A DNA stretch of 64,000 nucleotides from a plasmid. Shown one piece after another: positions 4,084-51,128 of this stretch. The notes under the pieces were generated by a model, which was not told the origin of the DNA, searched no databases, and was given only the letters and a program-made list of their open reading frames with translations. The DNA lies in the sequence record NZ_CP049149.1; one strand, written 5' to 3'. Position numbers and translations under genes: made by a program. Position 1 is the stretch's first letter, and each line of letters starts with the position of its first letter.

Positions 4084-4515
4084 ATGAGCACCGAAATCTA
4101 CGAAAAAATCATGTCCGATCTGGAGTTTGACCGGGACAATCTTGAAGACGTCTGGCGTCAGCAACCACGCCTTTTAATGGAGTACGGCTCCAGACTCGCC
4201 CAGGCAGAGCGAGAGGTGGCTGATGCGAAGCTGTCACTGGACGCTATTGAGGCAAAGATTTACGACAACGAGCGTAAGAACCTGAGTATGAACGGCATTA
4301 AGTTTAATGAGTCCGTGCTGGAGGCGAAGGTCAGAACCAACCCACAGTATCTTTCCAAACGTCAGAAACTGGATGATGCGCGGTATAAAGCAGACCTTTA
4401 TAAGCACGCTGTGGCCGCCTTTTCACACCGCCGTGACATGATCATCCAGGCATCGAAAATGGCCATCATGGAAATTGAGCGGCTGGGTGCCGAACGCTTC
4501 CACTCTCCCCGTTAA
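4084..4515 (+). CDS. possible UvsY-like recombination mediator
   Basis: Size, helical heptad pattern and position immediately upstream of the gp32-like SSB and near the UvsX/RecA gene resemble T4 UvsY. The similarity is weak and pattern-level only. Confidence 0.3.
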   Translation: MSTEIYEKIMSDLEFDRDNLEDVWRQQPRLLMEYGSRLAQAEREVADAKLSLDAIEAKIYDNERKNLSMNGIKFNESVLEAKVRTNPQYLSKRQKLDDARYKADLYKHAVAAFSHRRDMIIQASKMAIMEIERLGAERFHSPR

Positions 4516-4634
4516 TTTATGCTGGATCGTAAGTAAGTACCGATCTATCATTCATCTCGCTCGAAAGAGCCACGAACAAACGAACGCCCAAAGCGCACAG
4601 CGCCAATGGCCACATAAACAACAAGGAGAAATAC

Positions 4635-5645
4635 ATGTCTAAGTCATTACTTGATCTGCTTAACAAGACTCGTGGCGATATTGCTTCCAAACGTGGCAAT
4701 AACGTTGACCTGACCCGTCTGAAAGACGGCAACAACTTTCTGCGCATTTTTCCGAACAAGGATGACCCGAACGGGGTGTTCTTCCAGACTTTCGGTATGC
4801 ACTACGTTAAGCATCAGAATGAGGAAGGCAAAGAAGTTACCACTGCTTATGTCTGCGAACAGCACACCCACGGCCGCGCTTGCCAACTGTGTGAGATGGT
4901 GATGGAAGGTCGTGTCCGCCACAAAGGCAACAAGGCGATGGAAGAGCGCATTAACTCCATGCGTGCTACCCCGCGTTATCTGGTGAATGGTGTACTGTCT
5001 GCCCGCGAAGACTTTGGCGATGCAGAGAAATGCCAGCTGATCGAGCTGCCGTCCACCGTCTTCGATGACATCTGCAAAGTCATGTCCGAAGACATTGCAG
5101 ACGACATCGGCAACCCGCTGAGCAAGGAAGAAGGCTACGCGTTCCTGATTAAGCGCACCGGCTCTGGTCGTGATACCAAATATGACGTATCGCCGAAGCG
5201 CAAAGTCTACAAAGGCGACATCGCTGAGAAACTCTGGACTACCCAGCATGATCTGATCGCATACGCGAACCAGGCCGACGAGACCCGTCTGCTCTCTACC
5301 GCGCGCACGATGGGTCGCCTGATTGGCATCGCAGCGCCAGCTGCCACCATGTCTGCACCGGCGATTTCGTCTTCTGCTAAATCCGCTGCCGCCGCCCTGC
5401 CGGGTTTCGGCTCCATCACTGGCCATACGGAAGGCGCCGCTGCTGTCGCTACAGCACACACCCCAGCGCCGGAATCCTCCAGCCTGGTTGATGAAGAAAT
5501 TCTGCGTGCCGCGGAAGCTGAGTTTAAGCCAGAACCCGAAGCGGCTAAGGCACCGGAAGCAGCGATCGAACCGACTGCTTCCGCCACCGCTGCTCCGGCC
5601 GAAGAAGGTCTCGATGACCTGCTGGCTGAACTGGACGCTCTGTAA
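4635..5645 (+). CDS. single-stranded DNA-binding protein, T4 gp32-like
   Basis: A His/Cys cluster (CEQHTHGRACQLCEM) is compatible with the gp32 Zn site. There is an Ala/Pro-rich linker and an acidic C-terminal tail (EEGLDDLLAELDAL). A terminator follows. Confidence 0.55.
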   Translation: MSKSLLDLLNKTRGDIASKRGNNVDLTRLKDGNNFLRIFPNKDDPNGVFFQTFGMHYVKHQNEEGKEVTTAYVCEQHTHGRACQLCEMVMEGRVRHKGNKAMEERINSMRATPRYLVNGVLSAREDFGDAEKCQLIELPSTVFDDICKVMSEDIADDIGNPLSKEEGYAFLIKRTGSGRDTKYDVSPKRKVYKGDIAEKLWTTQHDLIAYANQADETRLLSTARTMGRLIGIAAPAATMSAPAISSSAKSAAAALPGFGSITGHTEGAAAVATAHTPAPESSSLVDEEILRAAEAEFKPEPEAAKAPEAAIEPTASATAAPAEEGLDDLLAELDAL

Positions 5646-10989: not shown

Positions 10990-11475
10990 CATCATAGCGC
11001 CTACCGCTGACAGCATACGTTTGTCTAAATTCGCCCCATTTTTACCGCTGACAGCATATCTTTTAGTCGCTCAATTTACCGCTGACAGCATACGTTATGA
11101 CCACAAGACAAGGTTTACCGCTCACAGCATATCCAAACATCACCTCATACCGCTGGCAGCATATCGACGTTTTTCGCCTCTGTGGGCGCTCTATCAGGAC
11201 GAGAAAAACAATCAAGTTAGTGAGTGCAAACCCTTATTTCATGCGGCTTGCGGGGTTAGTGACCACTGGGGAAGTTGTCGCGGGAAATGGGATCGAAGAG
11301 GCGCGCAGACCAGATAACGGCGGGCTAATGAGCAAAATCGCCCGCTGATATCATACATTTTCTAAAAATTACCGCTCACAGCATATCTTTTTGCCGCTGA
11401 CAGCATACTTAATGTGAAAAATACCGCTGACAGCATATCTTGTACCGCTGGTAGCATACGTTTTACCGCTGACAG
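10990..11475. repeat. iteron array downstream of repA (incA-like). Ten copies of a ~19-bp repeat TTACCGCTGACAGCATAYS in two clusters.
   Basis: Repeats read directly at about 10993, 11043, 11078, 11113, 11148, 11367, 11389, 11421, 11443 and 11463. Confidence 0.85.
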
Positions 11476-11479
11476 CATA

Positions 11480-12583
11480 TCAAAGGAGTTTCAGGCTGTT
11501 GGAGAGAATCTCGATCAGCTTGATGTTTTCGGGCGTCAGGTTCTGCGATAACTCGGTGATTTTGTTCACGAGGTTTTGTTTTGCATCGACACCAGAAGAC
11601 GTGCTCTCGACCGGCTTATCCGGAAGCGCGGGCATTTCCTCTTTGACCGAAGAGGCTTTGAGCTTGGGATTGCGGCTGTGGATCTGAATGTAAATCGAGC
11701 GGCCACGCTTAATCTCGCTGTATTCGAGATAGCCCAATTCCTCCAGCGTTTTTAAGCCGTTGCGGATGGTCTGATTCTGCGAGCTGACGTTACGACTACT
11801 CAAATTAAGTCTGGCTCGAAGCCTTGCCAGCGATACTGGTGCCGGTTTGGCTGGAAGACTTTCGATGAACGTATACAGCGCCTGGGCGGTCTCTTTGCGC
11901 GGCAGCTTGTTAATGACTTTTAGCTGGAGCAGCACTTTGTGGTCGAAGCGATAGAGTTCGGCCAGCTTCGGCTCTGCGTGAAAGATGATGGAGTCTTTTT
12001 GCTCGTTGTAATCGACGCTGTTCACCAGGTGAACCATCAGGAGCGAGATTTTGTTCGAGCCGTCGACGTTCTTTTCTTCATACGTGCGCTGGAAAGAGAG
12101 CGTGGTGCGCATGATCTTCAGGAGGCTGTTGGTGAGCCTGTCACGCAGCGTCTTGCGGATCTGCGACGACGGATAGCCGCAGAATTTGGCGAACTTGGTA
12201 ATGCTCAACTCGACGCGGCCACTCGGCTCCCCGTACTCGGCCAGAGAGCGAACGACGCCGACCCACGTTTTAAAATCGTGATCCATATCCAGGCGTGGAC
12301 CTGTTATCTTGATGTCGGAATACCCTTCTGAACGAGCAACCTCCAGCTGAACCAGTTCTTTTGAGGCGTCGATCTCATTAGGTCTGTTCCGCTTGCTGTT
12401 CTTTGTTCCCTTTAGCGTGGGCACGAACAAACCAAGCCTCATCAACGCTATAGGCTGAACAGTATTGTTGCTGTTTGGAACAAGATCGCCTGTGTATAGT
12501 TCGAGGGATTCTTCTTCAAAATTATCTATACTGTCGTCTAACACATTGTTTTTGGTTTCTTTTTTCTTTCGAGTGGGCATGTT
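11480..12583 (-). CDS. repA: plasmid-type replication initiator RepA (iteron-binding)
   Basis: Flanked on both sides by iterons. Size about 367 aa. Genomic architecture is identical to the P1/F-type replicon. The start is taken at MPTRKKKE. Confidence 0.7.
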   Translation of the reverse strand, partial: NMPTRKKKETKNNVLDDSIDNFEEESLELYTGDLVPNSNNTVQPIALMRLGLFVPTLKGTKNSKRNRPNEIDASKELVQLEVARSEGYSDIKITGPRLDMDHDFKTWVGVVRSLAEYGEPSGRVELSITKFAKFCGYPSSQIRKTLRDRLTNSLLKIMRTTLSFQRTYEEKNVDGSNKISLLMVHLVNSVDYNEQKDSIIFHAEPKLAELYRFDHKVLLQLKVINKLPRKETAQALYTFIESLPAKPAPVSLARLRARLNLSSRNVSSQNQTIRNGLKTLEELGYLEYSEIKRGRSIYIQIHSRNPKLKASSVKEEMPALPDKPVESTSSGVDAKQNLVNKITELSQNLTPENIKLIEILSNSLKLL

Positions 12584-12595
12584 GACACCTTTCCG

Positions 12596-12705
12596 CTTCC
12601 AACCGCTGACAGCATACGTTATTTGCCGTTGGCAGCATACCAAAAACAGATGGCAGCATATCGCTTACCGCTGACAGCATATCGCTTACCGCTGACAGCA
12701 TACGC
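12596..12705. repeat. iteron array upstream of repA (incC/origin-like), five copies
   Basis: Same CCGCTGACAGCATA core at 12601, 12624, 12644 (partial), 12664 and 12685. Confidence 0.85.
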
Positions 12706-12740
12706 GAATACCCGTTGAGGCCAGGCGTGGCGCGGTCTGC

Positions 12741-45193: not shown

Positions 45194-45388
45194 ATGACGG
45201 CAGAAGACGTGATTAATGATGTGCTGGTGGAGCTGGGTAAGCTACCTGATCATCTCCTCATAGCCACCGTATTTGACAACATACCTGCTGAGTTAAAGGC
45301 CCTGGCCAATGAGTGGGGATGGATGGATACGGAAGTTAGAGAGCAGCTATATGCGATAGCCTGGCGGATTGTTAACGCGCAACAATAG
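45194..45388 (+). CDS. hypothetical protein (64 aa)
   Basis: ORF with an RBS (gggagagaaaaag). Confidence 0.3.
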   Translation: MTAEDVINDVLVELGKLPDHLLIATVFDNIPAELKALANEWGWMDTEVREQLYAIAWRIVNAQQ

Positions 45389-45749
45389 CCTGCAACGCGT
45401 TGACATTGGTGGTCACTAATTGAGGATTTCTATAAGAACTCGTTGATCGCCCTCTTCCCTACTCTCCAACTTCATACACTCCAGGCGCGGCAAGGCTTTT
45501 ACGCACATAACACCCACAAGAAAACAAATAAATAATACATCAATGAAAAGTCAACGCTTTACCCTGATTTGGTCCAAAAAGTTGACGTTTTGCCATGTCA
45601 CTTCTTATATCCGTTAAGCAGCGTACCAGAGACCAACACCCTGCGACGAAAACGCCAAAAACGACTCCTGATACCACCACAAAACAGACATGCTCAGAAT
45701 GGCTCTCGTTGCGTTTAATGAGCATATAAACAAATTGTTTTAGGCATTA

Positions 45750-46340
45750 AGAAAACAACAAAACAAGATAACGAAGAAAAGGAACTGCCATTACCCACAC
45801 CCAGGCAATACCCACCTCTTCCTGCCAGGCTACCGAAAAGACCAACCTCATTGCCCTAGGCTACCGACCCCATGAAGCAAACCTCGAGCACTACCAAAAA
45901 GCGACAAGAGAAAGGCAATTTCTCTGAACGCCATTCCCCCAATACACGGAAGAGATACCCGGGAAGAAACTCCAGACCAGAACAGTCCCCGGCGTCATAT
46001 CGTTTACCCACTCTTACCCCGAAAGATAACGCAAATTCCTGATTAGCAGGGAACGCCATTACTTCACATAAGGAGAACTACAACAGACCAGAAATCACAT
46101 CACCCACACTTCCACCTCTCAAGGTAAACGAAAGGAAAAGCGCACACGCCATTACTCCATACACAGAGAAGAACTATCCCCAAAACGAAGAATACAGACC
46201 AGAGGAAAACCACAAGAAAACCATCTCTACAACATCTGCAAAACCACTTACCGGCAGAGAGAAGAAAGTCGCCTTTTCTCCCATACGAATGGTCACCGTA
46301 TAGAGCGCTAATAAGAGAGATACGAGTCCCCATAAGAGAG
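45750..46340. repeat. ORF-free C+A-rich segment with degenerate ~100-150 bp tandem repeats (GCCATTMCYYC...AGACCAGAA units)
   Basis: Units starting near 45777, 45931, 46053 and 46149. No ORF of 60 aa or more on the + strand across 45390-46910. Confidence 0.5.
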
Positions 46341-46913
46341 GTTATTCGAGTCAGGAAAGAGCACAGATATAAGAGAGAGGGGATGGCGGGGGATCGCTCC
46401 CTTTCCCGTATTTATTCAAGTCATGATTTTATCCCCCGTAACATCCCTGCGGTCGAACGAGTGAAAGGGCTACCGCGAAAATCAATCGGGAGCGTCCCCG
46501 CAGGGGAAAGGCTGGCTGCCTGAGTGGAAACGGCTGGAGGTTTTTCGGGAAACGGCTGGGTTCCCGTCATGGAAAGGGGGCGTGTCGGTATAGAGACAAA
46601 ATGCCGCGGGGACGGCTGATTCTCTGGCGGTACACCGTTTGGTGCGCGGGTGGCTTTCTTCCCGCTGCGCGCAGCTGCTGATACGTATTCTGCCAGAGCG
46701 TTCGAGGGTCACAAGCTGTTTCAGTAGGTTTTAGGGAAGAGGAAAATACTGCTCACCAGCCCTGCGGTGCGCGTTGAGAAGAATAATGTAAAAAGCGCTC
46801 CCGATACGCTCCCGGATACTCACTACTTTTCCAGTTCTCCCCGATACAAAATGCTTTTTAGCCTATGTCTTATTGCGATAATAACACCAACGAGAAAACA
46901 ACGTGTTTAGACA

Positions 46914-47144
46914 ATGGAGAAAAACATGTACAAGCATTTGAACATCAGCATCACCCTTTGCGGAGAAGAGACATGTACTGACGAACTCCAGATCTCTCTG
47001 GATGACGTTATCCGCTCTGCGGATGTCGCTGGGCGCATTGGTACGTTGATTGGCGAAGGGTATCGCGAGGGCACGTTTGATTTTCATATCGAGGACAACG
47101 CAATGTCCGTCGCGTGGAACTGCACAACGTCAGAGTCCAGATAA
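46914..47144 (+). CDS. hypothetical protein (76 aa)
   Basis: Preceded by a perfect promoter-element copy. Confidence 0.4.
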   Translation: MEKNMYKHLNISITLCGEETCTDELQISLDDVIRSADVAGRIGTLIGEGYREGTFDFHIEDNAMSVAWNCTTSESR

Positions 47145-47156
47145 AGGAGGAAGACA

Positions 47157-47369
47157 ATGAATATGCCTGTGATTGTGGAAGTATGGAGCGTGGACTCGCT
47201 GGCCGAATGTCTTGATGGCGTAGGGCCAGCACTGACCCGTAAATTATGGTCGTTTGTACCAGCTAAGGGAGAGTCACCCAAAGGGAAGGATGTTTGGCAC
47301 CTGCTGACTGATGAAGAGAAGCGGGAGCTGGTGGCCGCAGTGAAAGAGGAGTTCCCTGACGAAGATTAA
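47157..47369 (+). CDS. hypothetical protein (70 aa)
   Basis: RBS aggaggaag. A terminator follows. Confidence 0.4.
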   Translation: MNMPVIVEVWSVDSLAECLDGVGPALTRKLWSFVPAKGESPKGKDVWHLLTDEEKRELVAAVKEEFPDED

Positions 47370-47505
47370 CAACGGCCACCAGCAGGTGGCTTTTGAGTGA
47401 TTGTGGCCTGCGGCCAGCTGAATGCCGGAACGCTTCGCTTGGTGGCCGTTTTCACACTGGTATTATTTACACCAACAAGAAAACAAATTGTTTACGGAGT
47501 GTGCA

Positions 47506-47817
47506 ATGAATACCGAGATGATTTTGAAACTGGATAAGCTCCAGCCTCGCAAAGACAAACCTGCAGTACTCGGTTCGATCACTTTACTGGACATAGTGGC
47601 CAACGGCACAGCCATCCGACTTTTCAAAGAGACCGTTGTCGTCTTCGGCGAAACTTCTCGCAAGCGCATTGTAATGAACGTCCGGCGCTATAGTGCGAAA
47701 GGGTGGGTAGCTAAACAAGTTATCTGGCCTGAGTCAGATCTGGAGTTGGCTTTACTGGAAGTTAACAAGGTCGCCCAGCAGGAAATTCAACGCGCAACAA
47801 CCCTCGCCATAGCATAG
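47506..47817 (+). CDS. hypothetical protein (103 aa)
   Basis: Promoter element and RBS upstream. Terminator downstream. Confidence 0.4.
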   Translation: MNTEMILKLDKLQPRKDKPAVLGSITLLDIVANGTAIRLFKETVVVFGETSRKRIVMNVRRYSAKGWVAKQVIWPESDLELALLEVNKVAQQEIQRATTLAIA

Positions 47818-47936
47818 TCATGTGCAACACAGATTAGTCGAATTTACGACAGCCCCGTCGATCCTTCGGGGCTTTTTTGTATTGTAAGTACTTACCTATG
47901 GCGATAGTATTACGACGCATTTACATGGAGGTAAAA

Positions 47937-48344
47937 ATGAGTTTGACCAAAGAAGATTTAGTATTTGACCTTTACTACGCATCCAGCACTGACGAAGAAG
48001 GCAATAAACTGGCCCAGCTGACCGTTCAGTTCCGTGATGCATCGGCTGTTCCGCATGTGACTACCCAGCTGGCCCGCACAACTCTTAAGCGTGATCGCTC
48101 GAAGGTTTATGCCGTCGGCGAGCAATCCGTGAAAAATGGTTCGGACACTCTGCTGGCCGCCATTGAAGCCTATTATCGAACAGACCCGAAGACCATTTTC
48201 GAAAACCTGATGGCACAGGTTCAGGATATGATCGAGGGCAACCTGGGCGCCAACAATACCTGGGTTGGTTCATACGGCATAACCATTGTGTCTGGCGGCT
48301 CTCTGGAAGAGTATCTGCCTGAGTCCGTCTACAACGTCCAGTAA
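47937..48344 (+). CDS. hypothetical protein (135 aa)
   Basis: RBS ggaggtaaaa. Terminator downstream. Confidence 0.4.
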   Translation: MSLTKEDLVFDLYYASSTDEEGNKLAQLTVQFRDASAVPHVTTQLARTTLKRDRSKVYAVGEQSVKNGSDTLLAAIEAYYRTDPKTIFENLMAQVQDMIEGNLGANNTWVGSYGITIVSGGSLEEYLPESVYNVQ

Positions 48345-48472
48345 ACCAGCCAATGGCGCGTAACCCGCGCCATTTTTCCCCAACCCGTAAACAAGTTGTT
48401 TTATACCTTTTCTGAGTTGCGATAATAACACCAATAAGAAAACAAGTTATTAACGAAGTGGAGGAAATGTTC

Positions 48473-48847
48473 ATGGGACTTGATATCTATATTGAGACGC
48501 AGCCAAAAAACGATCTGAATAACGAGGCATCCAGAAAGCAAGTTGGCTACTTCCGTAAGTTCAATGCTCTCGTTGGGTGGATGAACCGTAACGTAGGTGA
48601 AGTTGTAAATTGTGAACTTTTAGAAGTTACGATGAATGATATTTGTGCTCTCAAGGCTGATTTGATTCGTCTAAACGAAAGCAATTGTGAAGAGTATCTG
48701 CCTACCCAGGAAGGGTTTTTCTTCGGTAGTCAGGAGTACGATGAAGGGTACTGGAATGACGTGGAAGAGCTGAAAGAGCTTGTGGATGAGCTGATTAAAA
48801 ATCACGACTTCTACAATAACAGACTGACATTTTGCGCCTGGTGGTAA
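48473..48847 (+). CDS. hypothetical protein (about 124 aa)
   Basis: Promoter element and RBS upstream. Confidence 0.4.
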   Translation: MGLDIYIETQPKNDLNNEASRKQVGYFRKFNALVGWMNRNVGEVVNCELLEVTMNDICALKADLIRLNESNCEEYLPTQEGFFFGSQEYDEGYWNDVEELKELVDELIKNHDFYNNRLTFCAWW

Positions 48848-48849
48848 AT

Positions 48850-49131
48850 ATGACTGATTTCACCATCTCCCCGAAAGCAGAAAACGTATGGCTGGAATCC
48901 TGGCTTGACCTGTCGCCGGCCGAGCAAAAAGAAATGGATTACGTCGAACCGGACGAACAAACCAGCTCCCGCTTCTTCCATTATCAGGATAGCGTTTATG
49001 ACATTGCCGATTTCATGCGCGATGACCGCTTCCCGGAATGGCACGCCGGCTATCCACTGAATGCCTTCGCTATGCTGATGATCCGCGTGACAGATTCAGA
49101 CGACACCATCGACATCGGATTACTTCATTGA
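48850..49131 (+). CDS. hypothetical protein (93 aa)
   Basis: Coupled to the preceding ORF. Confidence 0.4.
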   Translation: MTDFTISPKAENVWLESWLDLSPAEQKEMDYVEPDEQTSSRFFHYQDSVYDIADFMRDDRFPEWHAGYPLNAFAMLMIRVTDSDDTIDIGLLH

Positions 49132-49335
49132 GAGAGGAGAGTCACCGATGCTGGTGGCTCTTAATTACCACCTACTTTCCCCAGGCTAAAAACACCCACC
49201 TCTTACCGCCAGGCTACCGAACCACCCACCGACTTCCCGACGGCCACCAGCTGCCGAAACAGAACGCTTGGACGCCTCACACCCACTGCGATAATTAAAC
49301 CAACGAGAAAACAAGTTGTTTAAAGGATTATCACA

Positions 49336-49818
49336 ATGAACTATATCGCCACTGTAAACACTCCCGCGCATGGCACCATCTCTGTCACATACTCCGACAT
49401 TGAAAAGAACATCCTGGGCGCCTGGCGCGAAGAAGAGACCATCCAGCTGTCCGGGAAAGAGAAGCAGCAGATCGCCAAAGACATCATTTGCAACCGTCGA
49501 TTCACGCGGGTATTTGAGAAAGCGTATGTGGTAAATTCTGGGTTTGGAACATTTGTCTTCCCGGTGCGCTCCGGGAGATTCTGTCAGTCCAAGCTGACTG
49601 AGTTTGCCTCGCAGATCGCTATCTGGATTAAGACTCAATCGTCGTTCGATTTTAGCGATGATGAAGCAATAGCGCAGGGTATGCGGATCGCCAACAATGC
49701 AATTAAATACAAAAACATCACGTATGCCGCTGGCGTTGACTCATGGAAACTGTTTTGCGCTAACTTTATGCTGAATGTATTCGCCAGCAATCGGATTCAC
49801 ATACTGGCTGGCAAGTAA
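49336..49818 (+). CDS. hypothetical protein (160 aa)
   Basis: Promoter element upstream. Confidence 0.4.
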   Translation: MNYIATVNTPAHGTISVTYSDIEKNILGAWREEETIQLSGKEKQQIAKDIICNRRFTRVFEKAYVVNSGFGTFVFPVRSGRFCQSKLTEFASQIAIWIKTQSSFDFSDDEAIAQGMRIANNAIKYKNITYAAGVDSWKLFCANFMLNVFASNRIHILAGK

Positions 49819-50477
49819 GAGGGGAGGGGGCTGGAAATGCCCCTTTCTTTCCGTCCACCAGCTCCCGCAGGGAAGATTTTCAGAAACGGCCAGAAGTCCA
49901 TCAGGACAACCGAAGGAAACGGCCAGGGAATTTTAGGGAAACGGCTGGGGTCGCCTTCAGGTAGAAACAGAGCGGGAGATGCCCAGAATCGTATCAGCCA
50001 TCACGCGGAAAGAATCAGCGGAAGCTGGTGGGCGCTTTAACCCCTGAGCCATACAGACAGCTTTCGCTACGTGATTATGTGCATCAGTGGGTAAGCCACC
50101 GCCAGCGCGCAGACGTCGCGCCAACGTGATAATCATATGCCAGCGCCAGCACGTCATGCCAGTATTGCCGACACGCCCCGAAAGAAAGCGCATCGCCACC
50201 AGCAGACACCAGCAGCACCCATCACCAGACAATCACATCCACAACCACACCAGAAAAGCCATGCGCTAAAACGCAACACCTCGCACTGTGAGCGCTCGTT
50301 ATTGTGGGTAATGTGTATGTATTGGGAAGGAATAAAACGCGTCACAGTGGCGCTTTTTAATGGGTTTATTTTCGTGATAGCTGGTGGAGAAAAGACAATA
50401 AAAAATGCGCCATTATGGCGCGCTTGATGTGATAAGCAGAAACAAAAAAGCGCCCATAGTGGGCGCTCCTTCGTTAG

Positions 50478-51128
50478 TTATGCTTTGAATGCTTCAGCAA
50501 GGTAGTTGTAGAAATCATTTTTGATAAAGCGATATTGCTGTGATCCGTTTTTCGCTGCGCCCATTCCTTTAATCTTCTCAACCAGTCCGAGACGTTCACA
50601 CAGGTTGATAAGCTGGTTGGCTTGCGTATAGCCAGCGTCTGGTTTCAGCTCGTTAACTTTTTTCGCTTCGTTCATCAAATCGTATACAGCACCATTTGTG
50701 AACGTGTCGATCTCATCATTAATCATTTCAATAAGAGCAAACACGCGAGAGCCAGACATATCTGCAACACTGTAAACGCATTTGCCAGACTTGATAGACT
50801 TCACCAGGTAGACAAGTTTTTCCAATGAATAGCTGTTAGCCATTGCTTCGCGGAAAAAGACTTCTGGCGCTTGTTTGCTTGCTTTAATAGCGTAGTAGAA
50901 CACACCAGCTAATTTCTCATCGTTTACAGCGTTCAGCACGTTGTTGGTGAAGTATGCAAGCTTAGTAGTAGCAGCCAACATGTTAGCTTTATCTGCTTTG
51001 GTGTGGGTGCCATTCTGATAATGATTGTTATAAGTCTGTGTAGCGTTATCAGCGTTAATCTGTAATTCGTTAGCGATAACTACAGCAGCGTCGATGATAG
51101 CTTTTTTAGAGATAGATACGTTAGACAT
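50478..51128 (-). CDS. hypothetical protein (216 aa), minus-strand accessory gene
   Basis: ORF with a downstream terminator (50444-50467) and an AT-rich upstream region. Confidence 0.45.
   Translation of the reverse strand: MSNVSISKKAIIDAAVVIANELQINADNATQTYNNHYQNGTHTKADKANMLAATTKLAYFTNNVLNAVNDEKLAGVFYYAIKASKQAPEVFFREAMANSYSLEKLVYLVKSIKSGKCVYSVADMSGSRVFALIEMINDEIDTFTNGAVYDLMNEAKKVNELKPDAGYTQANQLINLCERLGLVEKIKGMGAAKNGSQQYRFIKNDFYNYLAEAFKA

Follow-up and report, generated by a model that had tools for sequence, protein, structure and literature searches.

A conserved non-coding locus of SSU5/pHCM2-type phage-plasmids with repeated motifs in a C/A-rich core

The analysed window is a stretch of 64,000 nt from plasmid record NZ_CP049149.1, a 64-kb SSU5/pHCM2-type phage-plasmid. 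Positions 45389-46913 (region 1) constitute its sole gap of at least 400 nt that lacks an ORF of at least 90 aa and shows a C/A skew. No ORF in 45390-46910 exceeds 77 aa, in agreement with the initial annotation, which had seen no credible ORFs there and had described the segment as rich in C and A. That richness is borne out both by the skews across 45400-46300 (GC skew -0.24 to -0.32, AT skew +0.18 to +0.40) and by the base composition of the core in 25 lineages (A 0.37, C 0.32, G 0.17, T 0.14). The region has matches in 911 PLSDB plasmid records, in S. Typhi pHCM2, and in 245 of 5426 complete E. coli genomes, and its carriers are SSU5/pHCM2-type phage-plasmids of Klebsiella, E. coli, Salmonella, and relatives. 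The truncated copies seen in cointegrate plasmids are due to a mobile-element insertion and are uninformative. None of the matched records has an RNA or regulatory feature annotated at 45389-46913, and PGAP called no genes in the region across the 245 E. coli genomes. Rfam covariance models gave no matches in the window at gathering score and nothing relevant in 45300-50500 at E values up to 10, no tRNA or tmRNA was found at the locus, and the literature searched on SSU5, pHCM2, and phage-plasmids contains no description of it. Positions of the individual features are listed in Table 1.

Table 1. Features of region 1 and of the related region 2 (49140-50353), in window coordinates
Feature	Position	Strand	Remarks
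Conserved head, TTGACATTGGYGGTCAC...TTTCTATAAGA-N4-GTTGATCGCC	45395..45450	.	Invariant in the first 10 relatives (collected by BLAST)
Early promoter/operator copy 1, degenerate (ATAACACCCACAAGAAAACAAATAAATAAT)	45505..45535	+	Repeat family; alignment to ~12 canonical copies
Inverted repeat AAAAGTCAACG...AGTTGACGTTTT	45547..45612	.	Conservation 0.93-0.94; alifold signal on both strands
Full operator palindrome TAAACAAATTGTTTTA, then degenerate promoter copy 2 (GGCATTAAGAAAACAA)	45727..45760	+	
C/A-rich unstructured core with GCCATTAC...ACGGAGAAGAAC boxes	45757..46365	+	Boxes at 45787, 45930, 46055, 46148
Tandem 31-nt units, ACCCACCTCTT-N5-CAGGCTACCGA	45807..45899	+	Repeat families, alignment, positions in 25 lineages
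G.U-rich hairpin, purine 5' arm, pyrimidine 3' arm	46380..46407	+	10 pairs
Conserved CCCCCGTAAC...CCCT-N-CGG	46432..46455	+	N, any base; flanks invariant
GGRAAAMGG cores, direct, 22-nt period	46504..46582	+	Cores at 46505, 46526, 46548, 46571
Variable tail	46601..46860	.	Substituted in pHCM2-type lineages by other sequence that contains a minus-strand CDS of 80 aa
Canonical early promoter/operator of the next gene (TGCGATAAT...GAGAAAACAACGTGTTT)	46864..46913	+	
Three tandem 31-nt units	49163..49248	+	Between terminator-like hairpin 49142-49163 and promoter 49277-49322
13-bp G.U-rich hairpin	49819..49851	+	Begins directly past the phrog_1641 stop codon
GRAAACGGC array	49865..49975	+	Cores at 49882, 49915, 49937; 87% identical to pMT1
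Variable C/A-rich tract	49976..50353	+	Ends at the first canonical + strand terminator (50339-50353)

The head motif at the left end of region 1 also served as the search pattern for the 25-cluster set, and its conservation within that set is partly biased for this reason. Readings of the head as nut boxA/boxB-like or RfaH ops-like sites were discarded by eye, the matches being poor and unconserved. Further to the right are the two promoter-element copies recognized in the initial annotation (45518 and 45749), both of which are degenerate. Copy 1 lacks the right half of the operator and is the sole sigma-70-like site in the scan, which returned one weak site where 5.9 were expected; a canonical promoter was not detected. 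The inverted repeat between the two copies overlaps a promoter-like, non-canonical TTGACG-17-TTATAT. The palindrome at copy 2 also precedes many other operons of the element, and this position is a candidate start for a transcript of the CA-rich segment.

Region 1 is non-coding in every lineage and on both strands. Substitutions in nine lineage pairs lack the 3-nt periodicity that is seen in a control gene (p = 6e-4 and 2e-5), and indels divisible by three number 0/12, 0/17, and 3/16. Stop-free stretches on the + strand extend up to 227 codons in two lineages, but they have no start codons and their frame differs between lineages. On the minus strand each GCCATTAC box reads ATGGC and is followed by a short hydrophobic ORF; these mini-ORFs have anywhere between 7 and 104 aa, with no conservation between lineages. 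A 61-aa ORF is disrupted in most lineages, outside Klebsiella. Decayed genes, one of the candidates initially put forward, would predict intact coding genes at this position in relatives; no ORF on either strand is conserved across the family, and the aperiodic substitutions, the indels that are not multiples of three, the unconserved frames, and the broken ORFs refute decay at family depth.

Related elements, in which the initial annotation had proposed to check conservation, do conserve the locus between lineages (25 clusters). Segment identity between lineages is 58-82%, compared with 35-38% at the third codon positions of the neighbouring gene, which are saturated, and invariant islands are maintained over the 25 clusters. 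The alignments show that the locus is under purifying selection and that it is a real, unannotated functional element, better conserved than the protein-coding gene beside it.

Several families of repeats are present in the core. One is a near-invariant GCCATTAC...ACGGAGAAGAAC box in four to five copies, with GCCATT(AC) boxes spaced 143, 125, and 93 nt apart. The degenerate units of 100-150 bp that had been described here are real, but in each of them only a box of ~25-30 nt can be aligned; Tandem Repeats Finder detected nothing because the units are too diverged. Allowing at most one mismatch, ACGCCATTAC has nine matches against 3.07 expected (0/100 shuffles), and its exact copies occur at this locus only. 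Unit D (46126-46190) is nearly invariant and holds the hairpin CUCC[AUACAC]GGAG, which belongs to a 27-nt motif (GCCAUUAC-CUCC[AUACAC]GGAG-AAGAAC). The tandem 31-nt units comprise two clear copies and one degenerate copy in the window, and three copies in most other lineages. The 31-nt unit was considered as a long-range pairing partner of 46719-46742, but this was rejected, since the target is not conserved between lineages. The boxes, the 31-nt units, and the cores of the array further downstream are all direct and in + orientation, and the boxes are confined to regions 1 and 2, with none close to the genes for Rep, the ParA-like protein, or terminase.

The alifold consensus energy of the core is ~0 to -4 kcal/mol per 120 nt, and its + strand has a minimum free energy of -104 kcal/mol (z -0.8), the - strand one of -176 kcal/mol. 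A+C amounts to 61% in variable core columns versus 75% in conserved ones, and because it is weaker in the variable columns, selection may not be for unstructured RNA as such.

The G.U-rich hairpin that follows the core has 95.2% of its cells paired, versus 68-84% in slid controls; the slid registers still pair to this extent because the two arms are purine-rich and pyrimidine-rich, respectively. GC<->GU switches are found at five pairs and one pair appears as AU, GC, or GU, so that covariation is modest, with a single pair changed on both sides. On the - strand, alifold gives E = 0. Elements of the Klebsiella and E. coli types have GUAUUUAUU after the hairpin and those of the pHCM2 type GUAGAAAUU, so that a U tract follows in some lineages only, and the hairpin is a candidate terminator, stabiliser, or protein-binding site.

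Beyond it lie the GGAAACGGCYRG direct repeats reported in the initial annotation, for which there are five matches against 1.0 expected (0/100 shuffles), all at 46526-46559 and 49882-49948. Together with looser cores, they form an array with a 22-nt period in every relative, and the spacings of the region-1 cores (22, 22, 31/33, and 44 bp) are the same in all lineages. In the array units the core alone is conserved, and the 'spacers' stay complementary to the core through differing sequences, including G.U changes. The stem potential of the units is 5.30, compared with 4.70 +/- 0.16 in spacer shuffles (0/200 shuffles), and 28 of 40 units are more stable on the + strand. The most conserved structural features of the locus are hairpins that can form in + strand RNA only.

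The initial annotation had also reported a partial copy of the locus at 49140-50300. Three short modules of region 2 are indeed homologous and in the same order, namely the 31-nt units (45807-45837 versus 49191-49221, 90% identical), the hairpin, and the array (46526-46582 versus 49915-49974, 75% identical), but the remainder is not, and the modules are split by a real gene at 49336-49818 (phrog_1641; ~160 aa). For instance, the CA-rich tract at 50050-50300 has no homology to region 1 and varies even between close relatives. The 31-nt units of region 2 are 89% identical to those of Yersinia pMT1, versus 51% when third codon positions in the adjoining gene are compared. Similarly, the hairpin past phrog_1641 is 95% identical to its pMT1 counterpart; it has no U tract, and its energy is -25 to -30 kcal/mol over 11 variants, with stem changes that are mainly C<->U opposite G. 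The spacings of the region-2 array are less regular (46-48, 33-34, and 22). Plasmid pMT1, which is plasmid-maintained, has lost region 1 and retained the region-2 modules; therefore, region 1 is dispensable for plasmid maintenance.

In region 2, tandem 31-nt units precede a 160-aa gene. An arrangement in which such short direct repeats in tandem (31 nt, 2-3 copies) are placed ahead of a gene of about that size resembles ToxI. Together with the stop-free + strand stretches and the hydrophobic mini-ORFs of the GCCATTAC boxes, it could indicate hidden or decayed genes or a toxin-antitoxin repeat, that is, pseudogenes, type I peptides with antisense RNAs, or ToxI-like type III repeats. This is the least probable of the explanations considered here. 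In addition to the evidence against coding given above, including the absence of PGAP calls, the 160-aa protein and its neighbours have no match to ToxN, AbiQ, defence models, or solved toxins (Pfam, PHROGs, PADLOC, PDB). Unlike in ToxI loci, moreover, a promoter rather than a terminator separates the repeats from the gene, and the copy in region 1 is not followed by an ORF. A type III system was rejected since the repeats are present but no toxin gene of the ToxN/AbiQ family was matched, and a type I system (ibs/sib-like) since no small hydrophobic ORF is conserved per unit.

We tentatively favour, as a plausible though far from certain reading, that region 1 is specific to SSU5/pHCM2-type phage-plasmids and that its rightward, + strand, non-coding transcript is a multivalent RNA platform. 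Transcription would enter via the upstream operon, via the degenerate operator-controlled early promoters, or via both, and would yield a C/A-rich RNA of ~0.65-1 kb almost without secondary structure. Such an RNA may display two to three of the 31-nt motifs and four to five of the 27-nt motifs, followed in its 3' part by the G.U-rich hairpin, as an end or stabiliser, and by the small 22-nt GGRAAAMGG hairpin units; the phrog_1641 mRNA would bear the same 3' module at 49819-49975. Acting as a decoy or scaffold, the RNA might bind several copies of one factor, which could be an RNA-binding protein, encoded by the phage or by the host, or else a complementary RNA. A multivalent platform is suggested because the motifs are repeated, invariant, and single-stranded, and the adjoining promoter/operator elements suggest that expression would be early in lytic growth. 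Also in favour of an RNA are the non-coding character of the locus and its conservation, the shared + orientation of its boxes, units, and cores, the lack of structure in the core, and the stem potential of the array units. The initial proposal that the segment is probably transcribed gains indirect support from the G.U-rich hairpins that pair on the + strand only and from the promoter-element copies upstream. Several observations nevertheless count against an RNA. As described above, there is no canonical promoter and the sigma-70 scan gave fewer sites than expected; Rho should terminate a long untranslated C-rich RNA, so that full-length product may be rare; and the modest covariation of the hairpin and the weaker C/A skew in variable columns apply here as well. 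Additionally, the region-2 31-nt units, with a terminator-like hairpin on one side and a promoter on the other, are placed in a way that also suits sites acting at the DNA level, the array repeats with an iteron-like period of 22 nt, GGA and ARN motifs show no enrichment, and no candidate for a binding partner was matched.

The proposed RNA is comparable to CsrB and RsmZ, which bind CsrA, and to Pseudomonas CrcZ, which acts on Hfq/Crc, in that short motifs are repeated in a single-stranded or small-hairpin context. These decoy RNAs are ~350-400 nt long, and CrcZ is also C/A-rich. A decoy for CsrA with CsrB-like GGA hairpins, or for Hfq with CrcZ-like A-rich motifs, would agree with the multi-unit architecture, with purine tracts such as GAGAAGAAC in the conserved boxes, and with array cores that in some cases read CAGGGA or CAGGAA. 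It is nonetheless very unlikely. The 21 GGA in 1525 nt equal the density of the whole window and, in the array units, GGA falls in the predicted stems rather than the loops; across 25 lineages, (ARN)3 was observed 6.7 times versus 5.9 expected and AAnAAnAA 1.8 times versus 1.5; and Rfam gave no match to CsrB, CsrC, or CrcZ. The protein-titrating RNA that the initial annotation had deduced from the many GGA motifs is consequently not supported. Unlike the known decoys, the RNA proposed here would be 0.65-1 kb long and its 27- and 31-nt motifs are unrelated to theirs. A GcvB-type sponge was also dismissed by eye, as the conserved boxes are not ACAACA-like.

A rut region is expected to have at least 80 nt of RNA that is untranslated, richer in C than in G, and unstructured, and the core, which shows these properties, resembles rut regions such as lambda tR1. 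Region 1 could accordingly be a Rho-dependent insulator or attenuator, in which an extended rut region stops transcription from the upstream nucleotide-metabolism operon or from local promoters before it reaches the operator-controlled early genes, while RNA synthesis pauses or terminates at the hairpin and the array. The low G and high C content (0.17 and 0.32) over ~600 nt in all lineages would fit such a role, as would the lack of an ORF to shield the RNA, the absence of a terminator from the upstream stop codon to the region, and the joining of the same modules to a CA-rich tract in region 2 ahead of convergent genes, among them the repressor. Rut sites are ~60-100 nt long and poorly conserved in sequence. 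The locus departs from them in its length of ~600 nt, its invariant boxes, and its own upstream promoter-like elements: Rho would require composition and not sequence, whereas the 27-nt boxes are invariant across lineages that are 60% identical overall; the 31-nt units would be unexplained, as would conserved promoter-like elements that fire into the region; 600-900 nt is far in excess of the need; and conservation does not extend to the CA-rich tract of region 2. We consider a Rho-dependent insulator or attenuator an unlikely function of the locus.

A DNA-level function, with the arrays, the 31-bp units, and the GCCATTAC boxes serving as a lytic origin or enhancer, as a packaging- or partition-type nucleoprotein site, or as a transcription-factor array, is possible, albeit with a rather limited likelihood. 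Arrays bound by a packaging or partition protein had been among the candidates initially put forward; no such partner protein was matched. The region-1 array consists of at least three direct repeats of ~17-22 bp with regular, helically phased spacing, as iterons do, and the cores lie in two clusters 3.4 kb apart, each immediately downstream of a strong hairpin. The 31-nt units of region 2 occupy positions about -40 to -125 relative to a promoter, past a terminator-like hairpin. Moreover, true ori iterons of the lambda-O type in unrelated phages (viral contigs L160, L116, and L135) likewise have a GGAAACGGC core and a 22-bp period, with three to six copies and some dyad symmetry. Those arrays, however, are located within a gene for an O-like initiator (PHROG 9773/345), with an AT/GATC-rich unwinding region after them, and neither such a gene nor such a region is found here; their second half-site (GCCGAAT) is missing from the phage-plasmid array, which differs further in following an RNA hairpin, in being present twice, and in having variable, core-complementary spacers. 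No O-like initiator was detected by tblastn or, among 10 candidates, by PHROG profiles, nor was a DnaD-like protein; no AT-rich or GATC-rich unwinding region adjoins the array, where GC is 0.51-0.58; and the cumulative GC skew has no extreme at this locus and reaches its minimum at the Rep locus. An origin of the lambda-O type was rejected on these three grounds, namely initiator, unwinding element, and skew signal.

The two separated clusters (46504-46582 and 49865-49975) also recall the phage P4 ori and crr and the iteron/inc loci of plasmids, in which the same direct repeat occurs in two clusters a few kb apart. In the P4 and plasmid systems a known cognate initiator binds both clusters; here no initiator was found for them, and the plasmid Rep uses other iterons (TTACCGCTGACAGCATA, 11001-12715, ~34 kb away), so that an assignment to Rep iterons or a centromere was rejected on both sequence and location. 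Further points against DNA sites are the absence of the boxes near the Rep, ParA-like, and terminase genes, the region-2 spacings of 46-48 and 80 bp, which are out of helical phase, and the complementarity to the core that the spacers keep through different sequences with G.U changes; the strong strand asymmetry in the composition of the core would also be left unexplained.

Overall, no known family fits the locus. Returning to the tentatively favoured multivalent RNA, a more specific proposal, which we regard as doubtful, is that an unstructured C/A-rich RNA of ~1 kb, through its 27-nt and 31-nt motifs, captures a host factor in several copies at once, for example Rho, a different RNA-binding protein, or a G/U-rich RNA, and thereby reprograms the cell early in lytic growth, while the 3' module of hairpin and mini-hairpin array, shared with one mRNA, provides stability or recruitment. 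SSU5/pHCM2-type phage-plasmids are common in clinical Enterobacteriaceae, and phage-plasmids are known from the literature to carry resistance genes. Here, a 1.5-kb locus shows stronger conservation than the protein gene beside it but figures neither in annotation nor in Rfam, which points to an unrecognised layer of phage-plasmid biology. If it does encode a long decoy or scaffold RNA, this would represent a new class, far longer than the small phage regulatory RNAs found in the literature searched; should it instead function as DNA, it may represent the family's unmapped lytic origin or a nucleoprotein control site.

The window is part of a Klebsiella phage-plasmid of the SSU5/pHCM2 type. 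Region 1 (45389-46913), which the initial annotation had described as C+A-rich and free of credible ORFs, is the sole large ORF-poor gap in the window, with no ORF longer than 77 aa, and its + strand is strongly rich in C and A. The interval matches six Klebsiella phage records at approximately 95% identity, and 491 (megablast) or 911 (blastn) plasmids from Klebsiella, Escherichia, Enterobacter, Salmonella (including S. Typhi pHCM2), Citrobacter, Cronobacter, and Yersinia. Of 5426 complete E. coli genomes, 245 contain the E. coli version, which is plasmid-borne in every case and carries no annotation in any of them. A literature search on SSU5, pHCM2, and phage-plasmids returned no mention of the locus. 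In a 110-kb relative, region 1 lies between a nucleotide-metabolism/early cluster and a series of small genes, each with its own promoter, and is distant from the plasmid Rep gene, the ParA-like module, and the terminase. SSU5-type sequence is also present in assemblies (L037, L038, and L040) labelled Halomonas sulfidaeris, a Bacillota MAG, and Catenulispora yoronensis, probably through contamination or misassembly. Additionally, cointegrate Klebsiella plasmids of 160-305 kb (L111:4001-4746 and L112:4001-4758) carry region 1 copies that end at approximately window position 46140, at the end of a mobile element, and adjoin type I R-M and DUF262 genes; these copies are phage-plasmid remnants within larger plasmids.

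Region 1 is non-coding. A gap of 1.5-2.0 kb is kept at this position in every relative examined, despite a differing upstream gene. Three-nucleotide substitution periodicity is absent from region 1 in nine lineage pairs, and indels in multiples of three account for 0/12, 0/17, and 3/16 cases; a neighbouring control gene has periodic substitutions (p = 6e-4 and 2e-5). Stop-free + strand stretches of up to 227 codons arise as artefacts of a composition poor in T and G; they have no start codons, and their frame differs between lineages. Read on the - strand, every GCCATTAC box gives ATGGC, and the short hydrophobic ORFs behind it vary in length between 7 and 104 aa, depending on the lineage. A 61-aa ORF (45540-45725) is open in the Klebsiella lineage only. 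Gene decay, which the initial annotation had proposed to recognize by intact genes in relatives, is therefore refuted, that comparison also being negative, and decayed or TA genes are each very improbable explanations.

Despite its lack of coding capacity, the locus is under purifying selection. The comparison set comprised 62 distinct versions, gathered via an invariant motif and forming 25 clusters below 96% identity, in which conservation is clustered in islands. Between-lineage identity is 64-80% in the head, 58-67% in the C/A-rich core, 69-82% in the hairpin, and 63-81% in the array. In the neighbouring 135-aa gene, third codon positions are saturated (35-38% identity) and first and second positions are only 49-68% identical. 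For TTTCTATAAGA...GTTGATCGCC, the conservation seen in the 25 clusters is partly biased, since this motif served as the search pattern; it was invariant already in the first ten relatives, collected by BLAST.

The locus is modular, and its parts are listed in the table. The repeats are real and commoner than chance: GGAAACGGCYRG has 5 hits against 1.0 expected, all within the two blocks originally named, and ACGCCATTAC with at most one mismatch has 9 hits against 3.07 expected, with exact copies in region 1 only. The supposed 100-150-bp units are recognizable by a box of approximately 27 nt, GCCATTAC-N8-ACGGAGAAGAAC, often followed by CAGACCAGAA, but by nothing beyond it, and Tandem Repeats Finder detected no repeats in region 1. 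Four boxes are present in the window (spacings of 143, 125, and 93 nt) and five in pHCM2-type relatives; in a 109-kb relative all of the boxes are confined to region 1 and to region 2, described below.

Features of region 1 and related elements (window coordinates, except for contigs designated by L numbers)
Feature	Position	Strand	Remarks
Conserved head	45395-45760	+	GTTGAC-type boxes, inverted repeat, promoter/operator copies
Degenerate early promoter/operator copies (two)	45518 and 45749	+	In head
Complete operator palindrome (one)	45727-45742	+	In head
Tandem 31-nt units	45807-45899	+	
C/A-rich core with boxes	45757-46365	+	
Hairpin of region 1	46380-46407	+	
Conserved segment	46432-46455	+	CCCCCGTAAC...CCCT-N-CGG
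Array of region 1	46504-46582	+	
Variable tail	46601-46860	+	
Promoter of next gene	46864-46913	+	
Standard promoter/operator copies	559, 9314, 33387, 42026, 42722, 44598, 46892, 47477, 48436, 49305	+	
Lambdoid-type iteron contigs	L160:886-1000; also L116, L132, L135, L141, L165, L167, L175		

The standard early promoter/operator, with approximately 12 canonical copies in the window, consists of an extended -10 (TGCGATAAT), AACACCAAY, and AAGAAAACAA-nTTGTTT, each copy being followed by a ribosome-binding site and ATG. Many of the element's operons have the operator palindrome in front of them. In the 109-kb relative, AAACAA-N-TTGTTT occurs at 11 sites, some of them before parA-like, dnaB-like, and terS-like genes, and a global regulator probably uses it as its operator. 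Within CCCT-N-CGG (46446-46453), N is U, A, G, or C by lineage between invariant flanks; the motif resembles a UNCG-type loop, and a search for a convincing closing stem was negative. In pHCM2-type lineages (L005-L008), a segment of approximately 300 bp replaces the variable tail (46600-46860 equivalent) and carries an annotated 80-aa minus-strand CDS (e.g. WP_000104663.1), a putative gene.

What had been described as a partial copy (49140-50300) comes down, in region 2 (49163-49975), to three short modules (units, hairpin, array) that follow the order of region 1 and surround a real gene (49336-49818). The 31-nt units 45807-45837 and 49191-49221 are 90% identical. The CA-rich tract at 50050-50300, originally counted in the copy, has no homology to region 1 and differs among close relatives. 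Past the array (49957-50448), the window and a close relative share no homology; the relative annotates a 67-aa minus-strand CDS there, and the window has a 63-aa ORF (50154-50345, -) with a hydrophobic C-terminus that overlaps the CA-rich tract. Yersinia pMT1 has lost region 1 through a large IS1541-associated deletion, and yet keeps the region 2 modules, which share 87-95% identity with those of the window (third codon positions, 51%). In this plasmid (L220, Y. pestis pMT, locus 4222-5089), the nrd/thy cluster of nucleotide metabolism is missing as well, as are the small early genes, with IS1541 at the junction; the modules retained are the 31-nt units, the hairpin, and the array of region 2. 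A terminator-like hairpin directly after a 93-aa gene (49142-49163; GAGTCACC-GATGCT-GGTGGCTC, then TTAATTA) is kept in pMT1 as GGCCACC-CATGCT-GGTGGCC.

Several features favour action of the locus as + strand RNA. Pairing of the region 1 hairpin is specific to the + strand. Across 27 distinct sequences, 95.2% of cells are paired, versus 68-84% with slid partners; G-C alternates with G-U at five pairs, and one pair is seen as A-U, G-C, and G-U. On the opposite strand, G.U pairs become A.C mismatches and the alifold energy is zero. The paralogous hairpin of region 2 (49819-49851) starts directly after a stop codon and is very stable (-25 to -30 kcal/mol) and G.U-rich, with C<->U changes opposite G as its main variation. 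Neither hairpin is followed by a consistent U tract, and the first canonical + strand terminator past region 2 is at 50339-50353; therefore, hairpin and array probably belong to a long transcribed 3' region. On the + strand, the C/A-rich core is almost devoid of structure, whether conserved or thermodynamic. Each array unit can form a 4-7 bp stem of conserved core with variable spacer; stem potential is 5.30 versus 4.70 +/- 0.16 in spacer shuffles (0/200 reach it), and the + strand is more stable in 28/40 units, although this is only suggestive as the units are interrelated. An 880-nt long-range pairing suggested by an inverted repeat is not conserved. That the locus is transcribed, how far the transcript extends, that it acts in trans, and when it is expressed are inferences.

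A Rho-dependent insulator is one reading of the locus, and we consider it improbable. Decoys for known proteins are each far less probable: GGA is not enriched in region 1, which takes away the ground for proposing CsrA, and motifs of the ARN and AAnAAnAA types equal the composition expectation and thus give no specific support to an Hfq decoy. No ToxN/AbiQ or defence protein lies near the locus, nor any Rfam family or tRNA at it.

Alternatively, the repeats could be DNA-level binding arrays, e.g. of a lytic origin or nucleoprotein site. The array period is strictly 22 nt (variants 31/33 and 44) in all lineages, and scanning a viral collection for two cores in phase led to unrelated lambdoid-type phages. 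There, (A)ATGGAAACGGC-N6-GCCGAAT units of 22-bp period lie within O-like initiator genes (PHROG 9773/345, E about 1e-35) and are ori iterons; a GATC-rich unwinding region (CTCTATACAGATC...) comes after them. In the SSU5-type element, however, no O-like or DnaD-like protein was found, the plasmid Rep has different iterons (11001-12715), no AT/GATC-rich flank lies beside the array, and region 1 has no GC-skew extreme; a lambda-O-type origin was rejected on these grounds. The 31-nt units of region 2 have the terminator-like hairpin on one side and the next promoter on the other, a placement that transcription-factor sites could equally have. DNA-level arrays in general are unlikely, if somewhat less so than the insulator. 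At least 12 Rep iterons (TTACCGCTGACAGCATA) lie on either side of the Rep gene (11483-12701, -), at 11001-11492 and 12600-12715. The RefSeq Rep N-terminus in a relative ('MLSAVNDMLSAV...') resembles translated iterons, and the annotated Rep start is probably too far upstream.

Overall, the finding is real: the locus is no ordinary intergenic DNA, and none of the families tested explains it. Some probability falls to mixed or unforeseen functions and, as the locus is modular, the readings are not mutually exclusive. The one that we tentatively place first is that region 1 may give rise to a + strand non-coding transcript with a shared 3' module of hairpin and array, which would serve as a multivalent RNA platform.
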